Origin: Pseudomonadota bacterium
GTDB taxonomy: Bacteria; Pseudomonadota; Gammaproteobacteria; Pseudomonadales; Moraxellaceae
Direction of reading: 5' to 3'
Length of the DNA: 24,000 nt
Assembly (NCBI GenBank): GCA_049320605.1
Contig: JBMOQI010000013.1
Span: 449,941 to 473,940, forward strand
The position numbers and the translations under genes were made by a program. The notes beneath the pieces were generated by a model, which saw only the letters and a list, made by a program, of their open reading frames with translations, ran no database searches and was not told the origin of the DNA. Below are positions 6,605 to 21,204 of the stretch, piece by piece. Each line of letters opens with the position of its first letter. Within the stretch, counting starts at the first letter, position 1.

Positions 6605-6697
6605 GGATAATCCCTGAAGAATCGAATGACAGGCCGGCAGTTTACCAGACAGGGAAGGGGCTCCCTACCTCGGCGCCGCCGGCCAGATTGCAGAGCC
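6605..6697. promoter_or_regulatory. Divergent promoter region between cysH and thrH
   Basis: Intergenic region between divergent starts. No individual boxes are called. Confidence 0.4.
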
Positions 6698-7366
6698 ATG
6701 GCCGAATCAGTAGAGTTCGCGGCGTTTTCGAGAAGCGGGCGGGGGTGTGCGGTGGAGATTGTCTGTCTGGACCTGGAAGGCGTGCTGGTGCCTGAAATCT
6801 GGATCAACTTTGCCAGGCGCCGGGGCATCAAGGCGCTCGAAGCCACCACGCGCGACATTCCCGATTACGATGTGCTCATGCGCCAGCGTCTTCGCATTCT
6901 CGACGAGCACCAGCTCGGCCTCGGCGATATTCAGGCGGTGATCGCCGACATGGGCCCGCTGCCCGGCGCCAGGGAGTTCGTGGAATGGGTGCGCGAGCAT
7001 TTCCAGCTCATCATCCTTTCGGATACTTTCTATGAGTTCGCTCATCCGCTTATGCGCCAGCTGGGCTGGCCGAGCCTGATGTGCCACAAGCTCGAAACCG
7101 ATGCGGAAGGCCGGATCACCAGCTATGTTCTGCGCCAGCCCGATCAGAAGCGGCAAGCTGTGAAAGCATTGCATGGGTTGAATTACCGGGTAATCGCCGC
7201 CGGTGATTCCTATAACGACACCAACATGCTGTCCGAGGCGGATCGCGGCATTCTTTTTGATGCGCCGGAAAACGTGATCCGTGAATTCCCGCAGTTCCCG
7301 GTTACCCGCAGCTACGAGGAACTGAAGGCGGAAATTCGCAAGGGCTCTCTGCGACGGATTCCCTGA
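6698..7366 (+). CDS. thrH: HAD-family bifunctional phosphoserine phosphatase / homoserine phosphotransferase ThrH
   Basis: The body (EIVCLDLEGVLVPEIWINFA...TTRDIPDYDVLMRQRLRILDEH...ILSDTFYEFAHPLMRQLG...AAGDSYNDTNMLSEA...APENVIREFPQFP) matches P. aeruginosa ThrH as I recall it. The position next to cysH and pabB is also as in PAO1. The start is ambiguous: ATG 6698 (used here) or GTG 6752, which aligns with the ThrH N-terminus. I rejected the track start at 6626. Confidence 0.85.
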   Translation: MAESVEFAAFSRSGRGCAVEIVCLDLEGVLVPEIWINFARRRGIKALEATTRDIPDYDVLMRQRLRILDEHQLGLGDIQAVIADMGPLPGAREFVEWVREHFQLIILSDTFYEFAHPLMRQLGWPSLMCHKLETDAEGRITSYVLRQPDQKRQAVKALHGLNYRVIAAGDSYNDTNMLSEADRGILFDAPENVIREFPQFPVTRSYEELKAEIRKGSLRRIP

Positions 7367-7403
7367 GAGCCTGTTCATAATCTATTTGCCGCGCTGTCCG
7401 TCG

Positions 7404-7477
7404 TCTCTTTTCGCGGCTAAAGCCGCTCCTACATAGGAATTAATACCTGTAGGAGCGGCTTTAGCCGCGAAAAGAGA
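7404..7477. repeat. REP-like extragenic palindrome (perfect 30-bp arms, 14-nt loop); probable bidirectional transcript-end structure between thrH and pabB
   Basis: 7404..7433 (tctcttttcgcggctaaagccgctcctaca) is the exact reverse complement of 7448..7477 (tgtaggagcggctttagccgcgaaaagaga). Each arm also holds an internal dyad, gcggct-aa-agccgc. The tgtaggagc...gcgaaaag core resembles REP families of Pseudomonas genomes. Confidence 0.85.
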
Positions 7478-7662
7478 ATCGCAGGCCCATCTTTTAATGG
7501 ACCACTCCAAGATTTTGGACAGGCTCTGAGATGCGGGTGCCGGCGGCGGCAATGACTGCGTCTGCCGCCGGTTAAGTGCCCGCCTAGAAGTTTTCCGGCA
7601 ACGGATGCCCGTGATTTCAGCTGCCCTGGCCTGAAAATGTCGCAAAACTTTGGTTCAGGCAC

Positions 7663-9006
7663 TTAATCCTGAGGCCCCATGCGCTCTAGCGCGCTCATCA
7701 GGGCGCCTATCTTGTCGAAACACTCCTGATATTCCTTGTCGCATTCCGAGTCGGCGACTATGCCGCCGCCAGCCCAGGCATAAAGGTCGTCCCCGATGCG
7801 CAGGAGTGTGCGGATCGCAATGTTCAAGAGGGCGTCGCCATCGCTGCCGATATAGCCGATGCTGCCGCAATAAATGGATCGCGGAGTCGGCTCCAGTTCG
7901 GCAATGATTTGCATGGCGCGCTTTTTCGGCGCGCCGGTAATTGAGCCGCCCGGAAAGGCATCCCTTATCAGGTCGACGGTAGCGGAGTCTTTTCGGAGCC
8001 TGCCCGTTACGGTGCTCACCAGATGGTGAACGTGGGGAAGGCTCTCGACCTCAAAAAGTTTCTCTACCTTTACGGAGCCCGTCTCGGCGTGTTGTGCAAT
8101 GTCATGACGCAGCAGGTCCACGATCATGAGGTTCTCGGCGAGATTCTTGCTGCTGCGGGCCAGTTCGTTGCGCCACCTGGTGTCGGTCAGCGTATCGCTG
8201 GCGCGAGGCGCCGTTCCCTTGATGGGCTTGCTGGTGATGCGGCCTTTGTCGACGCGCAGGAAAAGCTCGGGGGAGAGGCACATCACGTCCCCTTCTGGCA
8301 GTGAGATCCAGGCGGCATGGGCGGGGTCGCTTTCCTTGATCAGGCAGGCCATGGCGCTTGAACTGCTGCCCTCGCAGCCCGCGTGGAAGGCTTGCGCATA
8401 GTTCACCTGGTAGCAGTCCCCGGCCTGGAGATAGGCTTGAATGCGGCTGAAATGCTCGCGGTACTGCGTGATCGGCGTCAGGGGGGCAAAGGGGGTACGG
8501 AGTCGAAATGCCGGGGCTGATCGCCCTGTGAAACTGGTCACATTTCCGAAAAGTTTTTCCCACTCCGCCCCCATGGGGTCGGCGCCGTGGGTGGTCACCA
8601 ATTCGGCCGTTTGCCTGGAGTGATCTATATAAACGAAGCGTGGGTATATACCCATATACGCGCCAGGAAATTCTGGTGTCGAGCTGTCGGGTGAATGCTC
8701 GTAGCCTAGAAACCCCATGATGCCCCCCCGGAAAGGCAGGTCTTCCAGGCCTGCTGCGGAGGGGGGCTGAAAGAGAAGCCGGGGGAGTTCTTCCCAGAAG
8801 TCGCGCCATGTGGGGACAGTTAAAATTCCACCTTCTTTTTCCTTTTTAATTGCTTGATTTAAATAAAGAAGTGCACTACTCGGAAAGGCGGCGAAAAGCT
8901 CTTGCCGGCGGCTTCCCGGGCGCAGCCAGAGGGCCCTGTCTTGGGGCCCGGCACAGGCCCGGAGACGGGCGCCCAGATCAGGGAAGTAGGGCAGGGGAGT
9001 ACGCAT
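7663..9006 (-). CDS. pabB: Aminodeoxychorismate synthase component I (PabB)
   Basis: Chorismate-utilising enzyme motifs: SPELFLRV, KPIKGTAPR, FPGGSITGAPKKRAMQII, CGSIGYIG, AGGGIVADS. The Lys in PIKGT is the PabB catalytic lysine; TrpE has PIAGT. The track ORF extends to 9069. I prefer ATG 9006 (MRTPLPYFPDLG..., 447 aa). Confidence 0.9.
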   Translation of the reverse strand: MRTPLPYFPDLGARLRACAGPQDRALWLRPGSRRQELFAAFPSSALLYLNQAIKKEKEGGILTVPTWRDFWEELPRLLFQPPSAAGLEDLPFRGGIMGFLGYEHSPDSSTPEFPGAYMGIYPRFVYIDHSRQTAELVTTHGADPMGAEWEKLFGNVTSFTGRSAPAFRLRTPFAPLTPITQYREHFSRIQAYLQAGDCYQVNYAQAFHAGCEGSSSSAMACLIKESDPAHAAWISLPEGDVMCLSPELFLRVDKGRITSKPIKGTAPRASDTLTDTRWRNELARSSKNLAENLMIVDLLRHDIAQHAETGSVKVEKLFEVESLPHVHHLVSTVTGRLRKDSATVDLIRDAFPGGSITGAPKKRAMQIIAELEPTPRSIYCGSIGYIGSDGDALLNIAIRTLLRIGDDLYAWAGGGIVADSECDKEYQECFDKIGALMSALERMGPQD

Positions 9007-9224
9007 AGGGAGTGGGGCGAGATGACCTGTGGAAGTGGACGAGATGACCTGTGACGAATGGCGTAGCAATTCTATCCGCTTTACTCATATGCCGTTCGTC
9101 GCGACGTAAACAGTTCAGTTACAAAGTCTTGCCCGGAGGTTTTTGAGCGTGGTAGCTTGCCTCGGCATAACTCCAAATACCCCAGGGTTATACAGCCAAG
9201 AATAAAATCCAGGAGAATCAAAAG
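9007..9224. promoter_or_regulatory. Divergent promoter region between pabB and the first fibre-subunit gene
   Basis: 218-nt intergenic region between divergent starts. An SD aggaga (9211..9216) precedes ATG 9225. I could not identify a convincing -35/-10 pair. Confidence 0.4.
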
Positions 9225-10049
9225 ATGAATGGGTTCAAGAAGCTTGTGCTCGCTTCCGCCGTCCTAGCAGCCACTTCCGGCGCTTACGCCATGGAAGCCT
9301 TGGACGACGAAAGCATGTCCACCACCACCGGTCAGGACGGTCTGACCATCAACCTCGACAGCAGCATAAACGACCTGCAGATCAAGTATGTCGACCGCGA
9401 CGGCCTGAACGGCGGCGCATTCGATCTGGCTGGCGCTCTCGTGATCGGCGACACCACCAACGGTGTTGACGTGACCATCGTCGGCCTGCAGATCGACATC
9501 GATGTCGGCGGCAACCTCGGTACCGCCTCTACCGGTTCCGGCATGCTGAACATCGGCATCGGCCTGACCAGCCTGAACATCGGCCTGGGCAATGTGGTCA
9601 TCGGTGTGGCCGACGCCTCCGGCACCGCTGGCAGCAGCGCCATCGGCACGGTGAAGACCATCCTGGCCTTCGACGCCAGCGCCGCGCTGAATATCGCCGG
9701 CAACGCCAACCTGATGAACATCCAGCTGGGTAACGAAACGCAGGGCTCCATGGTGCACATGAGCGCCACCCTGGGCTCCATCACCCTGACCGGCCTGCGC
9801 CTCGAAGATAATTCCGGCACCTACCAGGGCGGCGCGATCCGCATCGGCACCCTCCGCCTCAGCAACGTTGTGCTTGTCAATGACATCGATGCCGTGGCTG
9901 GCGGCCTGCAGATCCGCACTGCCGGCAGCTCGATTGGCGAAGTCGGTCTGGAGGACGTGCGTCTGGGTTCCAGTGCACAGGCGGATATCGGCGATATCTA
10001 CCTCGTCGGCCTGGATGTCAACTCGACGATCACGGTTCGCGGTCACTGA
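9225..10049 (+). CDS. Secreted Cys-free Gly/Thr/Ile/Asn/Asp-rich beta-strand-repeat protein, putative fibre subunit 1 (FilA-like)
   Basis: 274 aa. Sec signal MNGFKKLVLASAVLAATSGAYA|MEAL. A conserved post-signal motif MEALDDESMSTTTGQDGLTI is shared with the 10241 paralog. The body alternates hydrophobic and polar residues (VDVTIVGLQIDIDVGG, MLNIGIGLTSLNIGLGNVVIGV, IRIGTLRLSNVVLVNDID). It has no Cys and ends TITVRGH-stop. Good SD and C-ending codon bias. Confidence 0.8.
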   Translation: MNGFKKLVLASAVLAATSGAYAMEALDDESMSTTTGQDGLTINLDSSINDLQIKYVDRDGLNGGAFDLAGALVIGDTTNGVDVTIVGLQIDIDVGGNLGTASTGSGMLNIGIGLTSLNIGLGNVVIGVADASGTAGSSAIGTVKTILAFDASAALNIAGNANLMNIQLGNETQGSMVHMSATLGSITLTGLRLEDNSGTYQGGAIRIGTLRLSNVVLVNDIDAVAGGLQIRTAGSSIGEVGLEDVRLGSSAQADIGDIYLVGLDVNSTITVRGH

Positions 10050-10064
10050 TGTACTGATGTAATG

Positions 10065-10091
10065 AAAGCCCCGCTCGCGGGGCTTTCTTTT
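10065..10091 (+). terminator. Intrinsic terminator after subunit gene 1
   Basis: aaagccccg (10065..10073), loop ctcg, cggggcttt (10078..10086), followed by cttttcctc. Confidence 0.7.
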
Positions 10092-10240
10092 CCTCGCTGC
10101 TCGTCCGCAACGCATTACTGCCTTTCGTCGGAATTGTCCAGAGATCCCCAAATAGAGGTATGGGCAGCCTCAATAGATTTTTGTTAACTTTCGTAAGCGA
10201 TGCTGAACCAATAAAAACCACCAGCACTCCGGAGAAAAAA

Positions 10241-11089
10241 ATGACTTTCAAGAAGCTTTTGCTCGCCACTGCAATTACTACGGTTTCCTCTGCTTCCTTC
10301 GCCATGCAGGCCATGGACGAAGAAGCCCTGGCTGAAACCAGCGGTCAGGACGGTCTGACCATCACCATCAATCCGCCCGATGCCGGCATCACCACCGACA
10401 TCGTGATCCATGACAAGGACGGCACGTCCGGCATTACCGGCGGCTCCAATAATAGCGGCGCTATCCTGTTCGACAACTTCGTGCTCAACCCCAATGGCGC
10501 CACGTCAACCATCAGCATCGTGATCGATGCCACGGGTAACACGAACGCCGATGCGACGGCCACCGACCCGCAGATCAACATCAACATCACCCTGCCTGGC
10601 AGCACCATCATCTCGACCGGTGCCATCTTCGTGGCGGACAGTAACGGTGTCGGCGCCGCCCTGGGTACCAACCAGAAGACCGTGCTGGCCAACATGAACA
10701 TCACGCTGGTCGGCGCCACGCTGATCAACATGCAGTTGGGTGGCGAGCGCACTGGCGACTCGATGATCAATGTCAGCACGACCATCACCGGTGGCCTCTC
10801 GATCACCAACTTCAAGCTGGAAGATGCCGACGACACCGGCTCCATCAACTCTGACATGGTCACCATCAAGAATCAGGCTAACGGTAACCTGACTGCCGAT
10901 ATCGGGATCGACGCCACCACCACGGGCCTGGTGATCACCATGACCCAGTTCGGTAGCGGTCTTGGCGTCAACATTGGCATGACCAACTTCGGTCTCGGTG
11001 CTGACGGTACTGCCACCAACTCCATTGGTGACATCGACGTGCTTGGTCTGGACCTCGACGGTACGACCATCACCATCGCCGGTCACTGA
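10241..11089 (+). CDS. Secreted Cys-free Gly/Thr/Ile/Asn/Asp-rich beta-strand-repeat protein, putative fibre subunit 2 (FilA-like paralog)
   Basis: The track ORF starts at 10160. I prefer ATG 10241, preceded by ggag-aaaaaa, giving 282 aa. Signal MTFKKLLLATAITTVSSASFA|MQAM. It has the same post-signal motif (MQAMDEEALAETSGQDGLTI) and the same C-terminal block as the paralog (IGDIDVLGLDLDGTTITIAGH versus IGDIYLVGLDVNSTITVRGH). Both genes end with the identical ggtcactga. Confidence 0.8.
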   Translation: MTFKKLLLATAITTVSSASFAMQAMDEEALAETSGQDGLTITINPPDAGITTDIVIHDKDGTSGITGGSNNSGAILFDNFVLNPNGATSTISIVIDATGNTNADATATDPQININITLPGSTIISTGAIFVADSNGVGAALGTNQKTVLANMNITLVGATLINMQLGGERTGDSMINVSTTITGGLSITNFKLEDADDTGSINSDMVTIKNQANGNLTADIGIDATTTGLVITMTQFGSGLGVNIGMTNFGLGADGTATNSIGDIDVLGLDLDGTTITIAGH

Positions 11090-11099
11090 TCGCCGCATG

Positions 11100-11129
11100 A
11101 AAAAGGCCCCCGCAAGGGGGCTTTTTTTT
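11100..11129 (+). terminator. Intrinsic terminator after subunit gene 2
   Basis: aaaaaggccccc / gcaa / gggggcttttt, with one G-U pair, followed directly by a T8 run (cttttttttg). Confidence 0.8.
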
Positions 11130-11321
11130 GCCGGAAAAATACGGCGTGGTGGAGGGGCGCTGCGCTTCAGCCCGCCCCTAAAGAGGCCCTCAGGAATCTG
11201 TTGGAGTTGCGTAAAAACAGGTGCCCGGCCCGCAAAAGCAGTGTATCTTCTGCGGCACTACGAAGAATCATGTAGTTATAAATACAGAAGTATAACGCGG
11301 CCATAACAACAAAAGATTGCC

Positions 11322-12155
11322 ATGTTTACAGTCGTCCTCGGGGCAGCCCTGATCTATTTCTTTGCGGAAACCTCCTTTGAGGCGGCCGATATACAGCCGG
11401 GTACCGTCTATTACTCCTATCCCATCGATAGCCGCCAGAGCAGCCGCATGGATATGCTCGAGCGCCCTGTGGTGGTGGCCCCCCTCGTTGAACAGCAGTT
11501 CCGCAATATTGCGCATCAGGCATATGACTACAGTTGCGGGTCGGCAGCGCTGACGACGGTCATGAACAGCTATCTCGGGCACAACTTCGTAGAGCGCGAG
11601 ATCATGGATGGCCTGCTCAAATACGGCGAATACGACAAGATTGTGCAGAGACGCGGTTTCTCGCTGCTCGATATGAAACGGCTCGTGACCGCGCTGGGTT
11701 ATCAAAGCGGTGGTTATAAAGGCTCCTTTGATGACCTCAAGAAGCTGGAGCATCCCGCCATCGTTCCCATTCACTACGGCGGCTTCAAGCATTTCGTCGT
11801 GGTCAAGAAATACCGGGAAGGGCGTGTCTTCGTGGCTGATCCGGCGCTCGGCAACATCAGCTTTCCTGAAGAGCGCTTCAAGAGCATCTGGGAAAACAAT
11901 GTGATGTTCCTTGTATTTCCGGGCGAAACGCCGACCACCACGAAGCTTGCGTTGACGGAGGCCGATCTGCGCTTTGTCGATGACCATACCGTCGACCTCG
12001 CTGCGCTGGCGGAGGCTCCGCTCGGACTGAAGCCGGTGGAGGAAGTGGCAGACAGGGCCGGGACGTTGCAGAGAGTGCTTGATGCTGACCCCAAGAGCGC
12101 TACCTACAATCAGGTCATCAGCGTGCCGCTTCGCACGTATTTCCGTCGCAAATAA
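11322..12155 (+). CDS. Stand-alone exported C39-family cysteine peptidase (FilB-like)
   Basis: 277 aa. The hydrophobic N-terminus MFTVVLGAALIYFFAETSFEA is a signal peptide or an anchor. The C39 catalytic layout is present: Cys72 in QAYDYSCGSAALTTV (codon 11535..11537), His157 in GGFKHFVVVKK, and Asp173 in VFVADPALG. There is no ABC transporter domain or neighbouring ABC gene. Confidence 0.8.
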   Translation: MFTVVLGAALIYFFAETSFEAADIQPGTVYYSYPIDSRQSSRMDMLERPVVVAPLVEQQFRNIAHQAYDYSCGSAALTTVMNSYLGHNFVEREIMDGLLKYGEYDKIVQRRGFSLLDMKRLVTALGYQSGGYKGSFDDLKKLEHPAIVPIHYGGFKHFVVVKKYREGRVFVADPALGNISFPEERFKSIWENNVMFLVFPGETPTTTKLALTEADLRFVDDHTVDLAALAEAPLGLKPVEEVADRAGTLQRVLDADPKSATYNQVISVPLRTYFRRK

Positions 12156-12194
12156 ACTCGTTTGACGCCTGGGACAGGCAAGAGAAAGAGAAAA

Positions 12195-13349
12195 ATGAGA
12201 AATCCCAGATTAAGCGCCGCATTTCTTTTTCTGATCGTTAATGCGATTGCTGCGAATGTATACGCTGAAGAGGCGCCGGTTCAGGATGCTCCGCCTGCCG
12301 AGGCTCCTGCCCAGGAAGCTGAGGCGGCTCAGCCGGAAGCCCCGGCGCCGGCCGAGACAGCTACAGCGCAGCCGGAAGCCGCCCAGCCGCAGGCCGACGC
12401 AGGCGCGGGCCAGAGCGATACGGCGCGTGAAGCGCTGCAGCAGAAGGCGGATGACGCCTCCAGCGAGAAAAACCTGCAGCAAGTGTTCCAGGCCAGCGAA
12501 AAGACCTACTCGCTGCTGAAGAAGGGCAAGGTATCGCTCGACTACAGCCTGGGCTACAGCTACTACCGCGACAGTCGCATCGATATCGCCATTGCGGACA
12601 ACAGCTCGAGCCTGACCCGCTTCCGCATCGAGGAGGATGCGCAGCACAGCATCACCAATGCATTCGGCGTGGCCTATGGCGTTAAAAACAACCTGACCCT
12701 TACGGCCGATTTCCCCCTCGTCACGAAGATGGACACGCAAAGCAGTCTCCAGGCCACCGGTCTCGGCGACATCTCGCTCGGCCTGCGCTGGCAGCCTATC
12801 CCGCTGAAGCGCGGCCTGCCGACCTCAACGCTGTTCGCTTCGCTTTCCACTGCCACCGGGGACAGCCCTTACGACATTAACCTGACAAGTGACCTGGCGA
12901 CCGGCAAAGGTTTCTACAGCCTCTCCTTCGGCGGCAGCATGAGCAAGGTGGCCGATCCCATCGTGCTGTTCGCCTCGGGCAGCTACTCCATGAGCACCAA
13001 GGTGAGCGGAGTCAACCAGAACCGCGGCGGGCGCATCCTCGAGTCCGTCGAGCCCGGCGATGGTATCGGCGCATCGCTTGGTCTCGCCTACTCCCTGAAC
13101 TATGACGTATCGCTGACGGCCTCCTACCAGCAGTCCTACTCGTTCTCCTCTACCTATAACTTTGCAAACGGCGATTACGTCAATACCACCGGCGCCATGA
13201 GCGCCATGGTGAATTTCTCGCTGGGCCTGCGCACCAACCCCAAGCGGATCGTGAACGTGAGCCTGGGCTATGGCCTTACGGAGGATGCGCCGGACGTCTC
13301 GCTGGGTGTTTCCATGCCCATCGACTTTGTCGGTAGGTCAGAAGACTAA
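12195..13349 (+). CDS. Outer-membrane beta-barrel protein with long acidic disordered N-terminal extension (putative 'transporter'/MetA-pathway-like OMP family; FilC-like)
   Basis: The track start 12162 is a TTG. I prefer ATG 12195, giving 384 aa. Signal MRNPRLSAAFLFLIVNAIAANVYA|EE. About 70 aa of Ala/Pro/Glu/Gln low complexity follow, then a helix-like segment (REALQQKADDASSEKNLQQVFQ). The rest is alternating beta-strand sequence with TGLGDISLGLRWQP, typical of that OMP family as I recall it. Confidence 0.65.
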   Translation: MRNPRLSAAFLFLIVNAIAANVYAEEAPVQDAPPAEAPAQEAEAAQPEAPAPAETATAQPEAAQPQADAGAGQSDTAREALQQKADDASSEKNLQQVFQASEKTYSLLKKGKVSLDYSLGYSYYRDSRIDIAIADNSSSLTRFRIEEDAQHSITNAFGVAYGVKNNLTLTADFPLVTKMDTQSSLQATGLGDISLGLRWQPIPLKRGLPTSTLFASLSTATGDSPYDINLTSDLATGKGFYSLSFGGSMSKVADPIVLFASGSYSMSTKVSGVNQNRGGRILESVEPGDGIGASLGLAYSLNYDVSLTASYQQSYSFSSTYNFANGDYVNTTGAMSAMVNFSLGLRTNPKRIVNVSLGYGLTEDAPDVSLGVSMPIDFVGRSED

Positions 13350-13361
13350 AAACGGGCCGGC

Positions 13362-15047
13362 ATGATGTTCCTCATGAAAACAGCAAGAAGAGCACGGCCA
13401 TGTTTCCTGGCAGGGATGATGTTGCTGCTTGGCGGACTGGCTACGCTGGCGCATGCCGACCTCGCGACCAACCTCTCGATCGACATCCGCGCGCTTTCCT
13501 TGGGTAATGCCGTTACTGCCGATCCGCCGGGCGTGAGTGCGATTCATTACAATCCTGCCGCCCTCGCCAAGCTTGAAGGCCGTCAGTTCGATTTTCAGAT
13601 CTTCTCGGCTGCCATGAGCATCGAGTCGCAGTTTTCTGCCCCGGCCGGTTATGAAGTCTTCGGATACTCCGATGATCCTGTGGTCTGCAACGACCGGCCC
13701 GATGATGGGGAAGACCGCTGCTCGCTTTTCCATACGGGCCAGAGCGAAGTGATGGGTATCTCCCTTTACGTGCCGGTGCTGGACGAAGTCGTTGACTTGC
13801 CTGACGGCATGCCGGCAGCGGCGCCGCTCTTTGGCTTCTCCATCAAGCCCGCGGGCTCCAAGTTCACCTTTGCGAATGCCTTCTTTGCGCCCATGGTGGC
13901 CGGCTTCCACCGCAAGGAGAACGATCCGGGCAACTTCCTGGCGTCGCGTGCCGCGCTCGAGCGCTTCACCTATCTTTCACCTTCCATTGGTTATCAGGTG
14001 AACGATGAGCTTGCCATCGGGGCCTCGGTGAACCTGTCCTACCAGGCGGTGGCACTCGAGACGGATTTCCGCTCGCCGAACGTGCTGCTTGGCGTGCTGC
14101 GCATGATTGACGAGAAGGTCTGCCCGCAGTTCAAGGGCGAGTCGAATATCGTCATCGACCTTTTTCTTTTCGGTTTCTGTAATGCGGACAAGGGCATTGG
14201 CCCCTTTGATAACCTCGCCACGCTGCAGGTTTCGATGGAACAGACACTGTCGCCGACCTACAACCTGGGCATTCTCTGGGAACCCAGCGATGATTTTGGC
14301 TGGGGCGCGGTCTACCAGAGCGAAGCGAAGATGCATCTGCATGGCAAGTTTTCGGTGGACTACGTGCCGGGTGTGCAGGATGTCTTCAATGGCGTGGGGC
14401 AGTCCATCACCGGAAGAATCCTGCTGGCCATCCTTGGGCTGCCGTCATACATCCCGCCCAGCGAGTCTGGCCTGATCTCCATGGACCTGGTCTATCCGGC
14501 GCATTTCCAGACCGGCATCAAATACAAGGTTCTGCCCGATATGCAGATCAATTTCGATATCGGCTGGACCGACTATGGCGAGTGGGATTATTTCCGGATG
14601 AAGTTCGACCGCGAGATCAGTGTACTGAAGCTCGCCCGTTTGCTCGCTCCGGGCACCACCACGACCTCGCTGGCCCTGCCGCTCGGATTTCAGAGCCCCT
14701 GGGGCTGGAAAATCGGCATGGAGTATTCGTGGAACGAGCGCCTCAAATTCCGCCTCGGTTTCGAACCGCGTAACTCGGCCATCCCGGATGACCGCCGTTC
14801 GACCCTTGTACCCATCAACCAGGCGCATCTGTATGGCGCGGGCATTGGCTATCAGTTCGACAAGGACACGAGCATCGACCTGACGGCGGCCTATCTCTAT
14901 TCGAAGGACTCGATCCCCGCCAACACCAGCCAGAGCCTCAATTCCACTGGACTGCACAATATCGTTTACAACCCTTATGCCGGCCTGGATGTGGAGACCG
15001 AGGCGTCCATCATCATCCTGGGTCTCGCCTACCGCACGCTGTGGTAA
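13362..15047 (+). CDS. FadL/OmpP1/TodX-family outer-membrane beta-barrel protein, enlarged (FilD-like)
   Basis: 561 aa. Signal ...LLLGGLATLAHA|DLAT. N-terminal family motif IRALSLGNAVTADPPGVSAIHYNPAALAKL (compare FadL [26 protein letters not shown]). Amphipathic strands throughout, and it ends LGLAYRTLW with the aromatic terminus typical of OMPs. Confidence 0.75.
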   Translation: MMFLMKTARRARPCFLAGMMLLLGGLATLAHADLATNLSIDIRALSLGNAVTADPPGVSAIHYNPAALAKLEGRQFDFQIFSAAMSIESQFSAPAGYEVFGYSDDPVVCNDRPDDGEDRCSLFHTGQSEVMGISLYVPVLDEVVDLPDGMPAAAPLFGFSIKPAGSKFTFANAFFAPMVAGFHRKENDPGNFLASRAALERFTYLSPSIGYQVNDELAIGASVNLSYQAVALETDFRSPNVLLGVLRMIDEKVCPQFKGESNIVIDLFLFGFCNADKGIGPFDNLATLQVSMEQTLSPTYNLGILWEPSDDFGWGAVYQSEAKMHLHGKFSVDYVPGVQDVFNGVGQSITGRILLAILGLPSYIPPSESGLISMDLVYPAHFQTGIKYKVLPDMQINFDIGWTDYGEWDYFRMKFDREISVLKLARLLAPGTTTTSLALPLGFQSPWGWKIGMEYSWNERLKFRLGFEPRNSAIPDDRRSTLVPINQAHLYGAGIGYQFDKDTSIDLTAAYLYSKDSIPANTSQSLNSTGLHNIVYNPYAGLDVETEASIIILGLAYRTLW

Positions 15048-15052
15048 GGCCG

Positions 15053-16033
15053 ATGCATCGCTGTTTCGGGGTGATCGCTCTGCTGGCACTGGTGCAGGCG
15101 GCCGAAGCGGAAGAGAAGTTTTATTCCATAGTCGGTCCCGACGGTGGCGTTCAGATCATTCGGAGCACTGCCGAACCTGACAATGAAAAACCGTCGGCAT
15201 CCGGAAAGGAAGAGCGGCCGGAGCCCCGCAGGGATGGGCCGTCCACGGCGGCCAAGAAAAAGACAAGGAAGCCTGGGCCGTCTGCGCCGGCGCCGGCGGC
15301 CACCGCCGAGGGTGGCCCGGCTGCTGCGACCGGGGCGGCCTACGACTCCGATGAATATGCAGACAGCGAGCACTTGGAAAGCCCGGGCGCGCGCGCCGGC
15401 GGCAAAGAACGCTTCTACATCATCCAGGACGGACTCGGCAGCCAGCTTAGCGATGGCGAGTCCGTTTATGGTTCTGATGAAGCCGCCGCCCCGGAAGACA
15501 TGCCCGTACAGGAGTTCTTCCGGCAGGTGGACGAAGGGATGCTGGTCAGGCGCGCGGAAGAGGCGACAAAGGCCTTTCCCTTGCTTCCCGGCTGTCTTGG
15601 CAAGGCGGAAATCGAGACTGCCCGGCCCATTGAGCCCGGGGCTCCGGAAACGCTGGTGATCGGCAAAGAGACGTATGTCTTCCTTAAGGATTCGCGGGTG
15701 GCCGCCGCCTATCGTCTTGGCGGGGCCGGTCTTCGGACCCTGGTTTCCAGTTCCTTTTCAAGGACGGACAGGAAGCCCGGCTTCGTGCATCCGCATCTGG
15801 CGTTCTTCGACGATCGCGGATGCCTCAGCCGCGTGGTGAGCAATTTTTATGAGAGCCTGTATCCGGCCAACCAGAGGCGGCATCCCATGCTGAAGGCCAG
15901 GCTTGCGGTTCATGCGGAAGAGACATTCATGCTGGTGCTGCTGCCCCGGGATGGCGGGGGCAAGACGGTGGCGGCGCTGCCCTACGAGTACTCCCGACTC
16001 GGGCAGCTCAAGTTCACGGTAAAAAGGCAATGA
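15053..16033 (+). CDS. Exported protein with basic Pro-rich disordered region and a C-terminal globular domain (FilE-like), function unknown
   Basis: The track start 15041 is a GTG overlapping the upstream gene. ATG 15053 gives MHRCFGVIALLALVQAAEA|EEKF, 326 aa. The segment PDNEKPSASGKEERPEPRRDGPSTAAKKKTRKPGPSAPAPAATAEGGPAAATG is low complexity. The stop overlaps the next start (ATGA at 16030..16033). Confidence 0.6.
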   Translation: MHRCFGVIALLALVQAAEAEEKFYSIVGPDGGVQIIRSTAEPDNEKPSASGKEERPEPRRDGPSTAAKKKTRKPGPSAPAPAATAEGGPAAATGAAYDSDEYADSEHLESPGARAGGKERFYIIQDGLGSQLSDGESVYGSDEAAAPEDMPVQEFFRQVDEGMLVRRAEEATKAFPLLPGCLGKAEIETARPIEPGAPETLVIGKETYVFLKDSRVAAAYRLGGAGLRTLVSSSFSRTDRKPGFVHPHLAFFDDRGCLSRVVSNFYESLYPANQRRHPMLKARLAVHAEETFMLVLLPRDGGGKTVAALPYEYSRLGQLKFTVKRQ

Positions 16034-17997
16034 TCATGAACGCATCCTTTACCAGAAATGCTTTGCAGGCACTGGCAGTGCTTGCCCTTGCCAGCCTCGT
16101 TGCAGGCTGTCAGGAAAGTACGAATATCGCGAGTGGCAGCCGCGGCGTGACCAGTTGCGGAAGTTTGCTGGGCGCTATCTGCGTGTCCGGACGTTTCGTT
16201 GACGAGACCGTGGAAAACCTGGACTACGAGTGCGGTCTTTCCGGGATCGGCACCGTCAGGTCGGTGACTGATGAGGATGGCAGCTTCTCGTGCCCGAGCG
16301 GCAGCATCGTCACGTTCTCGCTGACGCATCCGGAGGACGCCGCCAGCAAGATCGTCCTGGGCTCGGTGAAGGTCCAGAAGCCTTCTAAGGCGTCGCCGGG
16401 CCTGTATTTCAATGTCCTGCCCACCATGCTGGCCGGCAGCTCCGGTGCCGTGACGGCGCATCGGGGGCAGCAGGTTGCCCGCCTGCTGCAGACCCTGAAT
16501 ACGGATACCGTGTCCGCCAGTCTGCCCTCGCACCACATCCTGATTACCAATGAGCAGAAGCGCCGGATCAATGCCGCGCTCTTCCCTGAGGTGTCTGTCG
16601 ATGTTTTTACCCGGCCTGCTGCCGCCGATCCGGCGAATCCCCAAGAAAATGAAGTGGACTATTATTTCGCCGCCTATATAGACCTGTTGCACAGCAGCGG
16701 ACTGCTCAAGCCCGGCAGGCCTGCCCAGATGGTGGGGGTGAGCGAGGCGAGCGCAATGCAGCTCAAGGGGGCCTACAGCACTTTCGCCGGCGCCTATGCC
16801 TCCGGGCCGAGCGTGATTCTCACTGGCACCGCATTCGATGCCGATTTCGGCAATATGGTGGGCAACGGAAGCACGGACGCCGGCAAACGTTTCCTGGGCC
16901 AGTTCTGGAGTCTTGTCGATCGCCGCGGCCGGATGGTCGGCTACGGCATCTATTCCTATGGCCCGCCTGCAACCACCACTTCCCTTGGCTCCAATCCGCA
17001 GGCAATGGATATCGAGGGTTTCGAAACAGAAGGGACATTCAAGCGGCAATGGCCTGTCAGCGGCGACCTCGCCGGGCTGGTGTTTTCACTGCAGGGGGAT
17101 CCTGGCAAGGAAGTCGAGCTTACACAGGGAGTCATGTTCAGAGGGGCGATTGCAGGCTCCGAGAATCTGTACATAAACCTTTTTGAGGAAAGCCTGGGCG
17201 AGACAAAACTTGGCCAGTGGCGGCTCCAGGACAGCAGCAGCATCTACCTGTCCGGCGCCCCCTACTCCTTCCTGCATACGGTGCCTGCAGCTCCGCTCAT
17301 GGACCCCGAGCTCTGGGATACGACGGCCATCAGTTTTCCTGTTCCGCTGGAGGTTACGCTTTACAACACGGACTCGGACAGCTGTGCAGAAACCAAGGGG
17401 TGTGCGATCGCGCGCATTCCGCTGCTCGTGCTTGAGGACGGCAACATTGTCTCGGATATCAGCGAGAGGTGCGGCGTCGACCTGGATCCTGAAACGTTGA
17501 TATATCCGCTCCAAGACCCTCTCCCCGCGCAGCAGGAATACCCGCTGGGGCTGGTCACCAATATCCAGCGTGGCGGTAACGAGGCGAATGGCCTGCGGGA
17601 CGAGTCGGGTGCGCCGATCACGATCATGACGCCGCTGGTGCTGATTCCCAATGAGCCGACCCTTGTTCAGAGCATCGCCACGTCTCCCGCCTATGAGCGT
17701 TATCTTCCTTATTCACAGTTCTTCAGTAACTTTGGCGGTAATTCCCTGCTGAGGGTCGATGGCGGCGCGGGCCAGAAGTACCAGATGTATGGCCTCTGCA
17801 ATTCCACTTATGTCGCGGCTGGTCTATGCAATGTCGATGGAAGGTTCGCGCCAGGTATTGCCGCGTGGATAAACGATCTCAGCAATGCCCGCATTGCATA
17901 TTACGGAGCCGAGGACACTGCGAATGCGGCCGAGGCGGATGCCTATGGCAAGAACAATGACGGCCTGATACGGTCGACGCTGCGAACCTGCCCCTGA
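16030..17997 (+). CDS. Large Cys-rich lipoprotein (FilF-like), function unknown
   Basis: 655 aa. Lipobox LVAG|C with Gln at +2, so no Asp inner-membrane retention signal and probably outer-membrane targeting. It has 10 further Cys, mostly in nearby pairs (TSC..AIC, YEC..FSC, DSC..KGC, YGLC..AGLC). Translationally coupled to the upstream gene. Confidence 0.7.
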   Translation: MIMNASFTRNALQALAVLALASLVAGCQESTNIASGSRGVTSCGSLLGAICVSGRFVDETVENLDYECGLSGIGTVRSVTDEDGSFSCPSGSIVTFSLTHPEDAASKIVLGSVKVQKPSKASPGLYFNVLPTMLAGSSGAVTAHRGQQVARLLQTLNTDTVSASLPSHHILITNEQKRRINAALFPEVSVDVFTRPAAADPANPQENEVDYYFAAYIDLLHSSGLLKPGRPAQMVGVSEASAMQLKGAYSTFAGAYASGPSVILTGTAFDADFGNMVGNGSTDAGKRFLGQFWSLVDRRGRMVGYGIYSYGPPATTTSLGSNPQAMDIEGFETEGTFKRQWPVSGDLAGLVFSLQGDPGKEVELTQGVMFRGAIAGSENLYINLFEESLGETKLGQWRLQDSSSIYLSGAPYSFLHTVPAAPLMDPELWDTTAISFPVPLEVTLYNTDSDSCAETKGCAIARIPLLVLEDGNIVSDISERCGVDLDPETLIYPLQDPLPAQQEYPLGLVTNIQRGGNEANGLRDESGAPITIMTPLVLIPNEPTLVQSIATSPAYERYLPYSQFFSNFGGNSLLRVDGGAGQKYQMYGLCNSTYVAAGLCNVDGRFAPGIAAWINDLSNARIAYYGAEDTANAAEADAYGKNNDGLIRSTLRTCP

Positions 17998-18011: not shown

Positions 18012-18045
18012 GACAAAGCCGGCAATTGCCGGCTTTGTCTTTTTT
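18012..18045. terminator. Bidirectional intrinsic terminator closing the cluster and the convergent DUF934-cysI operon
   Basis: Perfect 12-bp stem gacaaagccggc / aatt / gccggctttgtc, followed by T6 on the + strand and by attttc on the - strand. The hairpin lies 14 nt after the lipoprotein stop and 9 nt from the DUF934 stop. Confidence 0.85.
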
Positions 18046-18048
18046 GGT

Positions 18049-18540
18049 TCAGCGCGAGCGGAAGAGGGGCGGGGCGTCAACGGCGCCCTGGTAGCGAACC
18101 GTGAAGGTCGACAGGCCACGGAGCGCGTCCTCGATGTCCTTGTCGGCACGCACGGCGAAAGCATTGAAGCCACAGCGCTGCTGATAGAAAAGCGTGTCCT
18201 TGATGATGTCGCCGACCGCGCGCAGTTCCCCCCTGAAGCCATGCTGGCTGCGCAGGATGCTGGCCGTCGAATAGCCGCGTCCATCCGCTAAAGCCGGGAA
18301 TTCGATGGCGACGAGATCGAGCCTGTCGAGGTCGGGGGCGATCTCCCCGGCAAACTCGTCCGGCGCCAGTTGAACCCCCTTGGGATGCGGGTGAGCGATC
18401 AGCGCGTCGCGGTGCCGGCGCCAGTCGGCAAGCCTGACGAGCACGGGGCCCGCCGGGAGCGGCAGGCTGCCGTCCTCCTGCGTGGCTGCCAGGCTGTAGA
18501 CGTCGTCGACGATGGCCCCATCCTTAATCAGCTTCGGCAT
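18049..18540 (-). CDS. DUF934-family protein (sulfite-reduction-associated, usually co-transcribed with cysI)
   Basis: The track ORF (to 18798) is an over-extension into cysI. ATG 18540 gives MPKLIKDGAIVDDVY...IEFPALADGRGYSTASILR...FNAFAVR..., 163 aa. It overlaps the cysI stop by 17 nt. The family call is from memory of the gene downstream of Pseudomonas cysI. Confidence 0.75.
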   Translation of the reverse strand: MPKLIKDGAIVDDVYSLAATQEDGSLPLPAGPVLVRLADWRRHRDALIAHPHPKGVQLAPDEFAGEIAPDLDRLDLVAIEFPALADGRGYSTASILRSQHGFRGELRAVGDIIKDTLFYQQRCGFNAFAVRADKDIEDALRGLSTFTVRYQGAVDAPPLFRSR

Positions 18541-20185
18541 AGACGCGCTCCTTGAAGATCTCGATGCCGATGCGCCGGTAGGTGGCCAGGAACTTCTCGC
18601 CAGGGAGGCGGTGATCGAGATAGGTATTGATGATTTCCTCGATGACGTCGGCCATGTCCTCGGCAGCGAAGGAAGGGCCGAGAATGTCGCCAATCGAGGC
18701 GTGATGATCGGATGAGCCGCCGAGCGTGACCTGGTAGAACTCTTCGCCGCGCTTGTCGACGCCAAGAATGCCGATATGACCCACATGATGGTGGCCACAG
18801 GCGTTCATGCAGCCGGAGATGTTCAGGTCGAGCTCGCCGATGTCATACACCCTGTCGAGATCCTCGAAGCGGCGCTGTATGGCTTCAGCGATGGGGATGG
18901 ACTTGGCATTGGCCAGCGAGCAGTAGTCACCGCCCGGGCAGGCGATGATGTTGGTGAGGTAGCCGATATTGGCCGTGTCGAAACCGAGCTCCTTCAGCTC
19001 GCCCCAGAGAGCGTGGAGCTCACTCTGCTTTACATCGGCGAGAACGATGTTCTGCTCGTGCGTCGTGCGCAGCTCGCCGAAGCTGTAGTGGTCGGCCAGG
19101 TCTGCGATGGCTTCCATCTGCGCATCGGTCACGTCGCCCGGCGCAATGCCGGTCTGCTTCAGCGACAGGGTAACGATGCGGTAGCCCGGCTGCTTGTGGG
19201 CATGGGTATTGCGCCTGATCCAGTTTGCAAAGGCAGGGTTGCTGTCCCTTGCCTGCAGATAAGCGGCCGGCTCGTCCGCAAGGCACTCATAGGCCGGCGC
19301 GGTGAAGAAGCTGCGCAGGCGGGAGAACTCCGCGTCGGGCACCGTCAGGGGACCGTCTTTCAGAGGGCGCCATTCCGCCTCGACCTTTTCGGCAAAGACT
19401 TCCGGGCCCAGGGCCTTGACCAGGATCTTGATGCGCGCCTTGTACTTGTTGTCCCGACGGCCATGCAGGTTGTAGACGCGCAGGACGGCCTCCAGATACG
19501 AGATCAGGTGCTGGCGGGGAAGGAAGCCCTTGATGAGGCTGCCGACCATGGGCGTGCGTCCGAGACCCCCGCCCACGAGAACGCGATAGCCGATTTCGCC
19601 GCTGTCGTTTCTTGCGATATAGACACCGATGTCATGGACGGCCGTAGCGGCCCGGTCGATGTCGGGCGTGGCGTTGACGGCAATCTTGAACTTGCGGGGC
19701 AGGAAAGCGAACTCGGGATGAAACGTGGACCACTGGCGGATGAGTTCGCAGGTGGGACGGGGGTCTTCGACTTCGCCTGCGACGACCCCGGCAAACTGGT
19801 CCGTGGTGGTATTGCGGATGCAGTTGCCGCTGGTCTGGATGGCATGCATCTGCACACTGGCCAGGTGGGCGAGAATGTCCGGAACGTCTTTCAGCTCCGG
19901 CCAGTTGAACTGGACGTTCTGGCGGGTCGAAACATGGGCATAGCCACGGTCGTAGGTGCGGGCGATATGGGCGAGCATGCGCAGCTGGCGGCTTTCCAGC
20001 ATGCCGTAGGGAACGGCGATGCGCAGCATGGGCGCATAGCGCTGGATATACAGCCCGTTCTGCAGCCGCAGCGGGCGGAATTCGTCATCGCTCAGCTCCC
20101 CCGCCAGATGGCGACGGGTCTGGTCACGGAACTGGGCGACACGCTCGTCGACAATCCGCTGGTCGTAGGCGTCATAACGGTACAT
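18524..20185 (-). CDS. cysI: Assimilatory sulfite reductase hemoprotein (nitrite/sulfite reductase family, siroheme-[4Fe-4S])
   Basis: 553 aa. Two nitrite/sulfite reductase half-domains. Cluster/siroheme cysteine motifs CPGGDYC (Cx5C) and CMNAC (Cx3C) lie in ..IIACPGGDYCSLANAKS..ISGCMNACGHHHVGHIGILG.. The N-terminus is MYRYDAYDQRIVDERVAQFRDQ... Confidence 0.92.
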   Translation of the reverse strand: MYRYDAYDQRIVDERVAQFRDQTRRHLAGELSDDEFRPLRLQNGLYIQRYAPMLRIAVPYGMLESRQLRMLAHIARTYDRGYAHVSTRQNVQFNWPELKDVPDILAHLASVQMHAIQTSGNCIRNTTTDQFAGVVAGEVEDPRPTCELIRQWSTFHPEFAFLPRKFKIAVNATPDIDRAATAVHDIGVYIARNDSGEIGYRVLVGGGLGRTPMVGSLIKGFLPRQHLISYLEAVLRVYNLHGRRDNKYKARIKILVKALGPEVFAEKVEAEWRPLKDGPLTVPDAEFSRLRSFFTAPAYECLADEPAAYLQARDSNPAFANWIRRNTHAHKQPGYRIVTLSLKQTGIAPGDVTDAQMEAIADLADHYSFGELRTTHEQNIVLADVKQSELHALWGELKELGFDTANIGYLTNIIACPGGDYCSLANAKSIPIAEAIQRRFEDLDRVYDIGELDLNISGCMNACGHHHVGHIGILGVDKRGEEFYQVTLGGSSDHHASIGDILGPSFAAEDMADVIEEIINTYLDHRLPGEKFLATYRRIGIEIFKERVYAEAD

Positions 20186-20454
20186 GGGCTTTGTTCCTGA
20201 GCCTGTATGGGATGGCTGCGAAGGATAGCAACCGGACTTTGATAAACCAAAATGGCTTTTTCGAATGGCCTTATTCAGTCTTTCTTATGTTTGTCACTGC
20301 CTGCGTAAGGGACTCAGGCCTTGAGCCGATTACAAACTGTCGAACAAATGACAAAATGCTGGTTGCCGTTACATGCTGTTGCTAGCATGCCTCTGGCAAT
20401 TGCTTTGGCAGTTGCCCGCCCCCCCAAAGCCCGGCAAAGGAATGTGGTCTGACC
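20186..20454. promoter_or_regulatory. Divergent promoter region between cysI and the GntR-family regulator
   Basis: 269-nt comparatively AT-rich intergenic region between divergent starts. CysB-dependent control of cysI is expected from regulon knowledge, but I cannot call a site. Confidence 0.45.
20395..20416. promoter_or_regulatory. Imperfect dyad, candidate operator for the adjacent GntR-family regulator
   Basis: ggcaattgc (20395..20403) and gcagttgcc (20408..20416) form an 8/9 inverted repeat with a 4-nt spacer, 39 nt upstream of ATG 20455. A second dyad, catgct-N6-agcatg, lies at 20372..20389. Confidence 0.25.
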
Positions 20455-21150
20455 ATGAGTTTTCGAGCTTCCGAAAGTCTCTCCGAGCAAATTGCCCAGC
20501 ATCTGGCGCAGCAAATCATTACCGGTGACCTGGTCGAAGGAGAGCGTATCCAGGAACTGCGCATTGCCAAGGAGCTCAACGTCAGCCGTGGCTCGGTTCG
20601 CGAAGCCCTGCTGATTCTGGCCCGCCGCCGCCTGATCGAGATTTATCCGAGGCGAGGCGCGGTGGTGGCTGAAATGTCCGTTGCCCAGGTTCGGGGCCTT
20701 TACGAAGTGGTTGCCATGTTCCTCAGGCTGGTCATGCGCAAGGCGGCGGAGAACTGGCGCCAGCAGGATATGGAGGGTTTTACCGGCCAGTTGCAGAAGT
20801 TGCAGTCCCATGTCGATGGGCATGACATTGAGGCCTTTTTCGAGGGGACTTTCGATCTGTTCAGGATGGTCCAGCGTTATGCCGGGAATCCCTACATCGA
20901 GGAAATCCTGGAGGATCTGCAGCCGGCCATCCGCCGCAGCTACTATCTGGCCCTGCATACCAGCCGGCGCGAGCTTGAGGAGTCCTGTACCTTCCTCAAG
21001 GGAATGGTGGAGAGCATCCTGCTGCGCAAGGGAGAGCAGGCGGCGTCACTGGTTGAGGAGTTCTGCGCGCATCAGTGCCATCTGGTGCTGGACTCGCTTA
21101 TGCGGGTCAAGCAGATCGAGGCGGCCTGGGCGCAGCGCCACCGGCGCTGA
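20455..21150 (+). CDS. GntR-family transcriptional regulator, FadR/FCD-type C-terminal domain
   Basis: 231 aa. N-terminal winged HTH (SEQIAQHLAQQIITGDLVEGERIQELRIAKELNVSRGSVREALLILARRRLIEIYPRRGAVV) followed by an all-helical C-terminal domain. Confidence 0.85.
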   Translation: MSFRASESLSEQIAQHLAQQIITGDLVEGERIQELRIAKELNVSRGSVREALLILARRRLIEIYPRRGAVVAEMSVAQVRGLYEVVAMFLRLVMRKAAENWRQQDMEGFTGQLQKLQSHVDGHDIEAFFEGTFDLFRMVQRYAGNPYIEEILEDLQPAIRRSYYLALHTSRRELEESCTFLKGMVESILLRKGEQAASLVEEFCAHQCHLVLDSLMRVKQIEAAWAQRHRR

Positions 21151-21204
21151 CACGGACTCATCGACAATAAACTCAAGGCATGCGGGTCTTCCCCATGTCA
21201 GGGG

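Follow-up and report, generated by a model that had tools for sequence, protein, structure and literature searches.

Fil pili are thin, curved filaments known from Acinetobacter, where they are encoded by filABCDEF, and this system and the Fap system of Pseudomonas (fapABCDEF) are among the described systems that come closest to the locus considered here. That locus lies within 24,000 nucleotides (nt) of contig JBMOQI010000013.1, GenBank assembly GCA_049320605.1 (positions 449,941-473,940 of the forward strand), hereafter the window, to which all coordinates refer. It begins with two tandem genes, filA1 and filA2, and we think it likely that they encode anciently duplicated subunits of the Fil pilus, the same thin curved filament as in Acinetobacter.

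Appendages sheared from Acinetobacter genomosp. 16 and analysed with mass spectrometry comprise straight type IV pili and, in greater abundance, "curved, thin FilA pili", for which no function is given in those studies (PMC10980823, PMC11539960). In strain Tol 5, FilA is cited as the subunit of the Fil pilus (PMC11784438). FilC and FilF increase in the biofilm and pellicle proteomes of A. baumannii, where the system has been loosely termed a "type III pilus" (PMC3203104, PMC8792954), and FilF has been tried as an antigen for vaccination (PMC11834437). Our searches of the accessible literature found no Fil structure, assembly mechanism or function, no paper linking Fil to Fap and no cryo-electron microscopy structure.

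Results

A diverged fil operon with two subunit genes

The window shares with the Acinetobacter Fil loci (NCBIfam NF050077-NF050081 and NF033645; Pfam PF19657) the same gene families in the same order, a full-length FilA match with an N-terminal TGQDG and a C-terminal GH, and a terminator after filA. It differs in having two high-scoring filA copies rather than one, in that FilA1 belongs to a first-position clade absent from the Acinetobacter loci in our tree, and in its divergence, with 29-36% FilA identity, scores below the curated cut-offs and a GC content of 61% as against approximately 40%.

FilA1 and FilA2 match PF19657 (DUF6160) over their first 60-95 residues with 56.0 and 38.4 bits, respectively, against a gathering threshold of 27. 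They also match, from end to end, the NCBIfam FilA model NF050077 ("putative pilus system protein FilA"), with 146.8 bits (E 8e-43) for FilA1 and 201.5 bits (E 2e-59) for FilA2. Neither reaches the curated cut-off of 220 bits of this Acinetobacter-centred "exception" model, the Fil cut-offs being tuned to that genus. Homology is clear, and by these scores the two proteins are diverged members of FilA, not equivalogs. Both have a Cys-free body and a GH end, and their genes stand directly upstream of filB-filC-filD(-filE-filF).

The products of the downstream genes are recognizable to differing degrees. FilB matches Pfam Peptidase_C39 (4.6e-20) and the NCBIfam models FilB (9e-115) and FapD (7e-33), and PCAT C39 domains in the PDB match it at approximately 2e-6; it has an N-terminal hydrophobic signal, and its sole Cys (C72) lies within a QxxxxxCG motif. 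FilC matches NCBIfam FilC (3e-125) and FapF (2e-19) and, over the barrel, the FapF structure 5o65 (E 7e-11). FilD, which ends in Trp, matches Pfam Toluene_X (6.5e-67), NCBIfam FilD (1e-261), the PorV family (1e-9) and FadL in the PDB (9e-8). FilE is identified by Pfam FilE_C (8e-6) and NCBIfam FilE (5e-19), the PDB search giving no relative, and FilF by NCBIfam FilF (5e-13) and by syntenic FilF genes in related loci, with no match in Pfam or the PDB. Judged from these families and their order, the locus is a complete filA-filA-filBCDEF operon and a diverged member of the Fil pilus family.

Like the Fap operon, the locus places a C39 peptidase (FapD/FilB) and a channel (FapF/FilC) downstream of paralogous genes for Sec-dependent subunits. 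The matches of FilB and FilC to FapD and FapF lie below equivalog cut-offs, so that on score they are homologues and not orthologues. The differences from Fap are several: FilA is unrelated to FapB and FapC, lacks their imperfect repeats rich in N and Q, and has an antiparallel meander rather than a beta-solenoid as its predicted fold; homologues of FapA and FapE were not detected among the Pfam and NCBIfam matches of the operon proteins; and Fil adds the FadL-like FilD, FilE and the lipoprotein FilF. By gene content, then, the locus is partly Fap-like, in its peptidase and channel, but is not a Fap system. We also observed in FilC a long low-complexity segment rich in Ala, Pro, Glu and Gln (residues ~35-85), between the signal peptide and the helical segment ahead of the FapF-like barrel; its counterpart in FapF may be the periplasmic coiled-coil and linker region.

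The FilA1/FilA2 pair

The genes had been proposed to be paralogous, and their products indeed align end to end with 35-37% identity (BLASTP E 8e-27). Composition agrees with the claim that neither contains Cys; Trp is likewise absent, G, T, N, D, I, L, A, S and V predominate, and the mature chains have approximately 2% aromatic residues and a pI of ~4.05. On direct reading, the FilA1 signal peptide has a KK n-region, a hydrophobic core and an A-x-A site, and A22 is nearly invariant across the FilA family. Sec cleavage would be expected between AYA and ME in FilA1 and between SFA and MQ in FilA2.

Three sequence blocks had been described as shared by the pair. The N-terminal and central blocks are as described, and both genes do end in the same ggtcactga, but the C-terminal pattern holds only if a one-residue indel is allowed (VN-STITV versus LDGTTITI). 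These blocks are signatures of the FilA family and are not specific to this pair. No stretch of the family is more conserved than the N-terminal block (2.86 bits per column over residues 23-35), with [TSA]GQ[DN]G near residue 34 in 335 of 391 FilA relatives; His, mostly as xGH, is the last residue in 289 of these, and 304 are free of Cys.

The DUF6160 module also heads proteins of 336 and 807 amino acids at Acinetobacter loci without filBCD, which suggests a portable tag for other cargo. These proteins occur in the Acinetobacter calcoaceticus-baumannii group, at loci L051, L060, L064, L067, L072, L074 and L078, which have no adjacent filB, filC or filD; in L067, for example, they lie at 7454-9877 and 9992-11002. 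An upstream protein of ~705 amino acids gives a weak match to the FilA profile in L067, L072 and L074.

Expression signals and non-coding conservation

Codon usage had been taken to be of the highly expressed type, and filA1 and filA2 do have the strongest bias within the window, with effective numbers of codons of 31.3 and 37.8, respectively, as against 42-48 for filB to filF. In the two filA genes, 97-98% of Gly codons are GGT or GGC, and 88-92% of Ile codons are ATC.

A Rho-independent terminator had been predicted after each filA gene, and a hairpin with a T-run lies 3' of both. Terminator 1 has a 10-bp stem (7 GC pairs) at 10064-10087 followed by TTTTCC (dG -19.1 kcal/mol, z -3.8), and it is probably leaky because its T-tract is short. 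Terminator 2 consists of GGCCCCC-GCAA-GGGGGCC followed by T8 (dG -26.4 kcal/mol, z -3.9). Each of these two folds better than every shuffle of its sequence. The operon-end terminator has a 12-bp stem followed by T6 (dG -25.8 kcal/mol, z -7.9). The nearest metagenomic contigs, L081 (FilA1 92% identical) and L083 (FilA1 71%), carry the same two-copy operon adjoining the same gene for a chorismate-binding enzyme. Terminator 2 is perfectly conserved in both, while terminator 1 is conserved in L081 and in L083 keeps its stem with a degenerate T-tract. Across the family, a terminator follows 57/79 last filA copies and 36/71 internal copies, and a terminator following filA is a general feature of the family.

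The 232-nt gap that had been noted ahead of the assembly genes was found at 11090-11321, between filA2 and filB. Both L081 and L083 retain an intergenic block within it, TCTGTTGGAGTTGCGTAAAAACAGGTGCC...AAAAGCAGTGTATCTTC, and the region 11130-11321 could possibly be a separate promoter or regulatory site. Upstream of filA1, the ~140 nt at 9085-9224 hardly differ in L081 and remain strongly conserved in L083, despite the 71% identity of FilA1. A scan for sigma-70 promoters found no plus-strand consensus in the conserved upstream blocks, and an Rfam scan of 8900-11400 found no riboswitch or leader, the only matches being sub-threshold ones on the terminators. We observed, in addition, that the non-coding segments 9085-9224, 10096-10240 and 11130-11321 show 84-85% conservation even in comparison with L083, whose FilA proteins are ~70% identical. 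The word CGTAAA(A)ACAG was spotted by eye upstream of both filA1 and filB; a repeat search did not report it.

Relatives, copy number and evolution

When a single genome was scanned for each species, 159 FilA relatives were found, essentially all in Moraxellaceae or related metagenome-assembled genomes (MAGs), the FilA-bearing genera being Acinetobacter, Alkanindiges, Fluviicoccus, Agitococcus and Aquirhabdus. The closest species-representative match is only 50% identical, and clustering of 1.84 billion proteins at 50% leaves the family with 1,177 representatives. Most of 80 fetched loci, essentially all from Moraxellaceae, have the order filA(n)-filB-filC-filD(-filE-filF). When 78 loci were scored with the FilA profile, 40 had one filA copy, 19 had two, nine had three, eight had four and two had five, so that 38 carry between two and five; tandem subunit paralogs are common outside core Acinetobacter.

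In a distance tree, FilA1 groups with the first-position copies of L081, L083, L001-L005 and L009, and FilA2 groups with second-position and single-copy FilA proteins, including those of Acinetobacter. This grouping therefore argues for an old duplication with retention of both lineages, and for FilA2 as the canonical type. A major subunit with a minor or nucleator paralog had been proposed; retention of both lineages would fit specialised roles, although the tree does not tell which copy has which role. The ratio of nonsynonymous to synonymous substitution rates (dN/dS) is 0.24-0.50 for filA as against 0.03-0.08 for filB and filD, and dS itself is lower in filA; fast evolution together with depressed dS would fit a pilin that is highly expressed and exposed at the cell surface. 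FilB and FilD of the window share 99% identity with those of L081, compared with 92% for FilA1 and 82% for FilA2.

Many multi-copy loci also contain, directly upstream of filB, a very divergent FilA-like paralog (70-95 bits, 280-350 amino acids) that forms its own clade. It was seen in L008, L010, L013, L014, L020, L021, L024, L026, L027, L033 and others, and the window is without it. This third paralog could be a minor or tip subunit.

Predicted fold

AlphaFold2 models built with a 72-sequence alignment are all-beta from residue 40 on for both FilA1 (predicted local distance difference test, pLDDT, 83.5; predicted template-modelling score, pTM, 0.67) and FilA2 (pLDDT 83.7, pTM 0.73); residues 18-40 are modelled with low confidence and include a short helix. 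Mean-field direct coupling analysis (DCA) of 357 FilA family sequences, aligned with hmmalign (Meff 283), gave antiparallel ladders between successive strands from S1 to S7, namely S1 (40-57) with S2 (70-97), S2 with S3 (106-131), S3 with S4 (143-168), S4 with S5 (173-197), S5 with S6 (203-222) and S6 with S7 (229-246), and a further ladder between S1 and S8 (256-274), with contacts at 41-274, 42-271, 50-264 and 54/55/56-258/259. S7 and S8 are joined by a single top-ranked contact, 240-260. Among the top 80 pairs, 35 have an antiparallel neighbour, compared with a random mean of 5.2 and a random maximum of 16, and only 15 have a parallel one. Prediction and coevolution thus show FilA, at the level of a model, as an eight-strand up-and-down antiparallel meander whose first strand is paired with its last.

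The central conserved block falls at the S4-S5 hairpin turn, and the couplings 41-274, 169-274 and 40-177 place all three conserved blocks at one pole, where conservation averages 2.34 bits as against 1.81 bits in mid-strand. In longer FilA relatives, insertions rich in Ala, Thr and Asn are found in the S1-S2 loop and the S6-S7 turn; tandem domain duplication was considered for these relatives and rejected, the extra length being loop insertions.

A Foldseek comparison of both models with 350,542 PDB chains gave no significant structural analogue (best E 0.23 and 0.02, TM ~0.1). The weak matches were to long-hairpin or curved antiparallel sheets, such as lysenin and gasdermin pores, outer-membrane barrels and hot-dog folds. 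When the PDB was searched with FilA, by sequence and by profile, only chance matches came up: a stretch of gelation factor aligned to the signal peptide and N-terminus, P2X and VgrG.

Chaperone-usher operons, such as those for Csu, type 1 and P pili, consist of a highly expressed major-pilin gene, an attenuating terminator and then the assembly genes. In those pili, N-terminal and C-terminal strands pair in antiparallel fashion by donor-strand exchange, and the S1-S8 pairing of FilA could be the same kind of contact. On the other hand, no PapD-like chaperone or usher was found when every protein of the operon was scanned against Pfam and NCBIfam, and FilA, roughly twice as large as an Ig-like pilin, is Cys-free and is predicted to be an eight-strand meander. 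Curli (csgBA/csgDEFG) resemble the locus in having two paralogous secreted subunits and in exporting them unfolded across the outer membrane, as would also be the case for FilA. They differ in that homologues of CsgG, CsgE and CsgF were not detected here, FilA has no repeat units and another fold is predicted. The locus is, from its gene content, neither a chaperone-usher nor a curli system.

Amyloid, ligand carrier or barrel?

The original prediction had spoken of beta-repeat proteins with a beta-solenoid or stacked-strand fibre fold, and had suggested that a beta-helix be looked for in predicted structures. A full explanation along these lines would be a functional amyloid of the curli or Fap type, in which one paralog is a CsgB/FapB-like nucleator and the other a CsgA/FapC-like major subunit, the product being a parallel beta-solenoid or cross-beta structure formed after FapF-like export. 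The homology of FilB and FilC to FapD and FapF speaks for it, as does the presence of two paralogous Cys-free, Gly/Asn/Thr-rich subunits ahead of the machinery; Fap and curli, too, combine a major subunit with a nucleator paralog (PMC5557850). The fold evidence, however, runs counter to it. Comparison by hhalign of profiles for the N- and C-terminal halves of FilA gave a probability of 3.7%, with no internal repeats, imperfect or N/Q-rich ones included, so the "repeat" of the earlier description does not hold as a repeat in sequence. The coevolving pairs form long antiparallel hairpins and few parallel ladders, not parallel in-register rungs; the confident monomer models are all-beta and imply a defined subunit fold; neither Foldseek search of the 350,542 PDB chains listed a beta-helix, CsgA or FapC among its matches; and the FilA profile search of the PDB matched neither FapC nor CsgA. 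Moreover, published images show thin, curved individual pili, and most Acinetobacter loci have a single filA, which would make a separate nucleator unnecessary. We consider an amyloid unlikely.

A second alternative is that FilA1 and FilA2 are secreted proteins that do not polymerise, for example carriers of hydrophobic ligands that work with the FadL-like FilD, the copies being redundant isoforms. FilD does belong to the FadL/TodX family of hydrophobic-compound transporters, the FilA family is concentrated in hydrocarbon-degrading Moraxellaceae, and the weak Foldseek matches include the lipid-binding folds of LBP, Der p 7 and Mdm12. Those matches are not significant, however, with probabilities of at most 0.1, the literature shows FilA filaments, and the long separate retention of both paralog lineages argues against redundancy, all of which leaves this explanation very improbable. 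Finally, the idea that the pair are small outer-membrane beta-barrels of the porin or OmpX type, with the S1-S8 pairing closing an eight-stranded barrel, can draw on the next-neighbour antiparallel topology and on weak Foldseek matches to FapF, EspP, OmpG and OmpF, but is hardly credible given aromatic contents of 2% in FilA versus 8-12% in FilC and FilD, the lack of Trp, a Gly-His rather than aromatic C-terminus, the pI of 4.05, Foldseek TM-scores of 0.1-0.2 with E >1, dN/dS that is high throughout FilA, and the recovery of the Acinetobacter homologues from sheared filaments and not from membranes.

Layout of the operon and its surroundings

The features of the operon are collected in Table 1. 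The ATG of filA1 is preceded by AGGAG 9 nt upstream, and that of filA2 by a GGAG ribosome binding site 7 nt upstream; the longest mechanically called open reading frame of filA2 begins at 10160, but homologues and the alignment with L081 and L083 favour 10241. The genes from filB onward are packed closely, with 6 nt between filB and filC and 12 nt between filC and filD, a GTG start of filE that overlaps the filD stop at 15041-15047, and an ATG of filF that overlaps the filE stop (ATGA) at 16030-16033. From this spacing and these overlaps, filBCDEF appear to be translationally coupled, unlike the widely spaced filA genes.

Table 1. Features of the fil operon in the window.
Feature	Coordinates	Strand	Basis
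Leader/promoter region and ribosome binding site of filA1	9085..9224	+	Conserved non-coding
filA1, FilA-family subunit of 274 amino acids, first-position paralog clade	9225..10049	+	Pfam, NCBIfam, tree
Sec signal peptide of FilA1, residues 1-22, predicted cleavage between AYA and ME	9225..9290	+	Sequence-inferred
Conserved mature N-terminal block of FilA1 (MEALDDESMSTTTGQDGLTI)	9291..9350	+	Most conserved family stretch
Central conserved block of FilA1, LMNIQLGNE...LED, residues 163-195	9711..9809	+	L168, G169 invariant
C-terminal block of FilA1 (IGDIYLVGLDVNSTITVRGH and stop codon)	9987..10049	+	Last strand
Intrinsic terminator 1, short T-tract	10064..10095	+	Hairpin energy
filA2, FilA-family subunit of 282 amino acids, canonical type	10241..11089	+	NCBIfam, tree
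Intrinsic terminator 2, strong, flanking A and T runs	11100..11129	+	Hairpin energy
Conserved intergenic block before filB	11130..11321	+	Conserved in L081, L083
filB, periplasmic C39-family cysteine peptidase, FapD-like	11322..12155	+	Pfam, NCBIfam, PDB
filC, outer-membrane channel, FapF homologue	12162..13349	+	NCBIfam, PDB
filD, FadL/OmpP1-family outer-membrane barrel	13362..15047	+	Pfam, NCBIfam, PDB
filE, exported protein with FilE_C domain	15041..16033	+	Pfam, NCBIfam
filF, predicted lipoprotein of 655 amino acids, LVAGC lipobox	16030..17997	+	NCBIfam, synteny
Operon-end intrinsic terminator	18012..18049	+	Hairpin energy

The flanks (6626-9069 and 18524-21969) encode a HAD hydrolase, two GntR/FCD regulators and, both on the minus strand, a chorismate-binding (PabB/TrpE-like) enzyme and a sulfite/nitrite reductase; these are ordinary housekeeping and regulatory genes with no evident connection to the fil operon. 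The GC content of the window (0.61) is close to that of the nearest Fil loci, L002, L004 and L009 (0.61-0.64), and differs from that of Acinetobacter (~40%); the high-GC Fil loci come from organisms binned as Moraxellaceae or Pseudomonadota MAGs.

Discussion

The original prediction held that filA1 and filA2 encode Sec-exported, highly expressed, Cys-free, all-beta fibre subunits, and FilA homology, synteny and published studies of FilA filaments by electron microscopy and mass spectrometry agree with it. The operon layout confirms, too, that the subunits are encoded ahead of the assembly genes and set apart from them by terminators.

If the two genes do encode Fil pilus subunits, a plausible pathway can be drawn. 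The FilA pre-proteins would be exported by Sec and cleaved after A-x-A, and the mature chain, being acidic, Cys-free and poor in Pro and aromatic residues, would stay unfolded in the periplasm. FilB and FilC, whose homology to the Fap pair is clear, would then move FilA across the outer membrane, in a FilB-dependent step through FilC, while FilD (FadL/PorV-like), FilE and the lipoprotein FilF may act as accessory or anchoring factors. We believe that the N-terminal DUF6160 module is probably the export or assembly tag; it is the best candidate because it is the most conserved part of FilA, lies outside the fold of the monomer models and heads proteins of unrelated length. In curli, the N-terminal segment of mature CsgA is the secretion signal, which offers an analogy for the conserved FilA N-terminus.

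Outside the cell, FilA would fold into eight long antiparallel strands and then polymerise. The conserved N-terminus AM[EQ]A[LM]D[DE]E...TGQDG, the central LGxE turn and the C-terminal xGH would all lie at the same pole, and the S1-S8 pairing may either close the subunit or join subunits head to tail in a donor-strand-like manner. The terminators after each filA and the strong codon bias would together place the subunits in large excess over the machinery.

Several points weigh against reading the pair as Fil pilus subunits assembled in this way. Identity to Acinetobacter FilA is only 29-36%, and every NCBIfam Fil match in the operon scores below its curated naming cut-off. Filament formation is known from the Acinetobacter homologues, by electron microscopy and mass spectrometry, and for the window it is deduced from the genes. 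The export roles proposed for FilB to FilF derive from homology to Fap, and the substrate of FapD is itself unknown (PMC5557850). Inspection of the FilA N-terminus by eye gave no convincing register for a canonical double-glycine C39 cleavage site, and none is evident. The large insertions of some relatives fall exactly in the pole turns S1-S2 and S6-S7, so that these turns would not be fully buried in a subunit interface. Finally, DCA does not separate contacts within a subunit from those between subunits, and AlphaFold draws on the same coevolution signal, so the two lines of structural evidence are not fully independent.

We also put forward, tentatively, a broader proposal that may well prove wrong in part or whole: that, among the surface filaments of Gram-negative bacteria, Fil pili form a class with a structure of its own, being neither chaperone-usher, type IV, type V nor amyloid. 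Such filaments would be built from ~25-kDa eight-strand meanders without an analogue in the PDB and joined head to tail through S1 and S8, with Fap-type export recognising the DUF6160 tag, FilD as carrier or anchor, and FilA1 and FilA2 forming mixed or alternative filaments.

As genome annotation the locus is ordinary, a diverged fil operon. Its wider importance is that the Fil pilus is abundant on Acinetobacter cells, yet the family is named but mechanistically blank. A predictable antiparallel topology for FilA, with conserved blocks converging on one pole, would give specific and testable structural hypotheses, and it offers concrete targets in the N-terminal tag, the GH end, Cys72 of FilB and the S1-S8 pairing. 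Fil appears to couple a subunit specific to the family to Fap-like export parts, and environmental Moraxellaceae often have several subunit paralogs.

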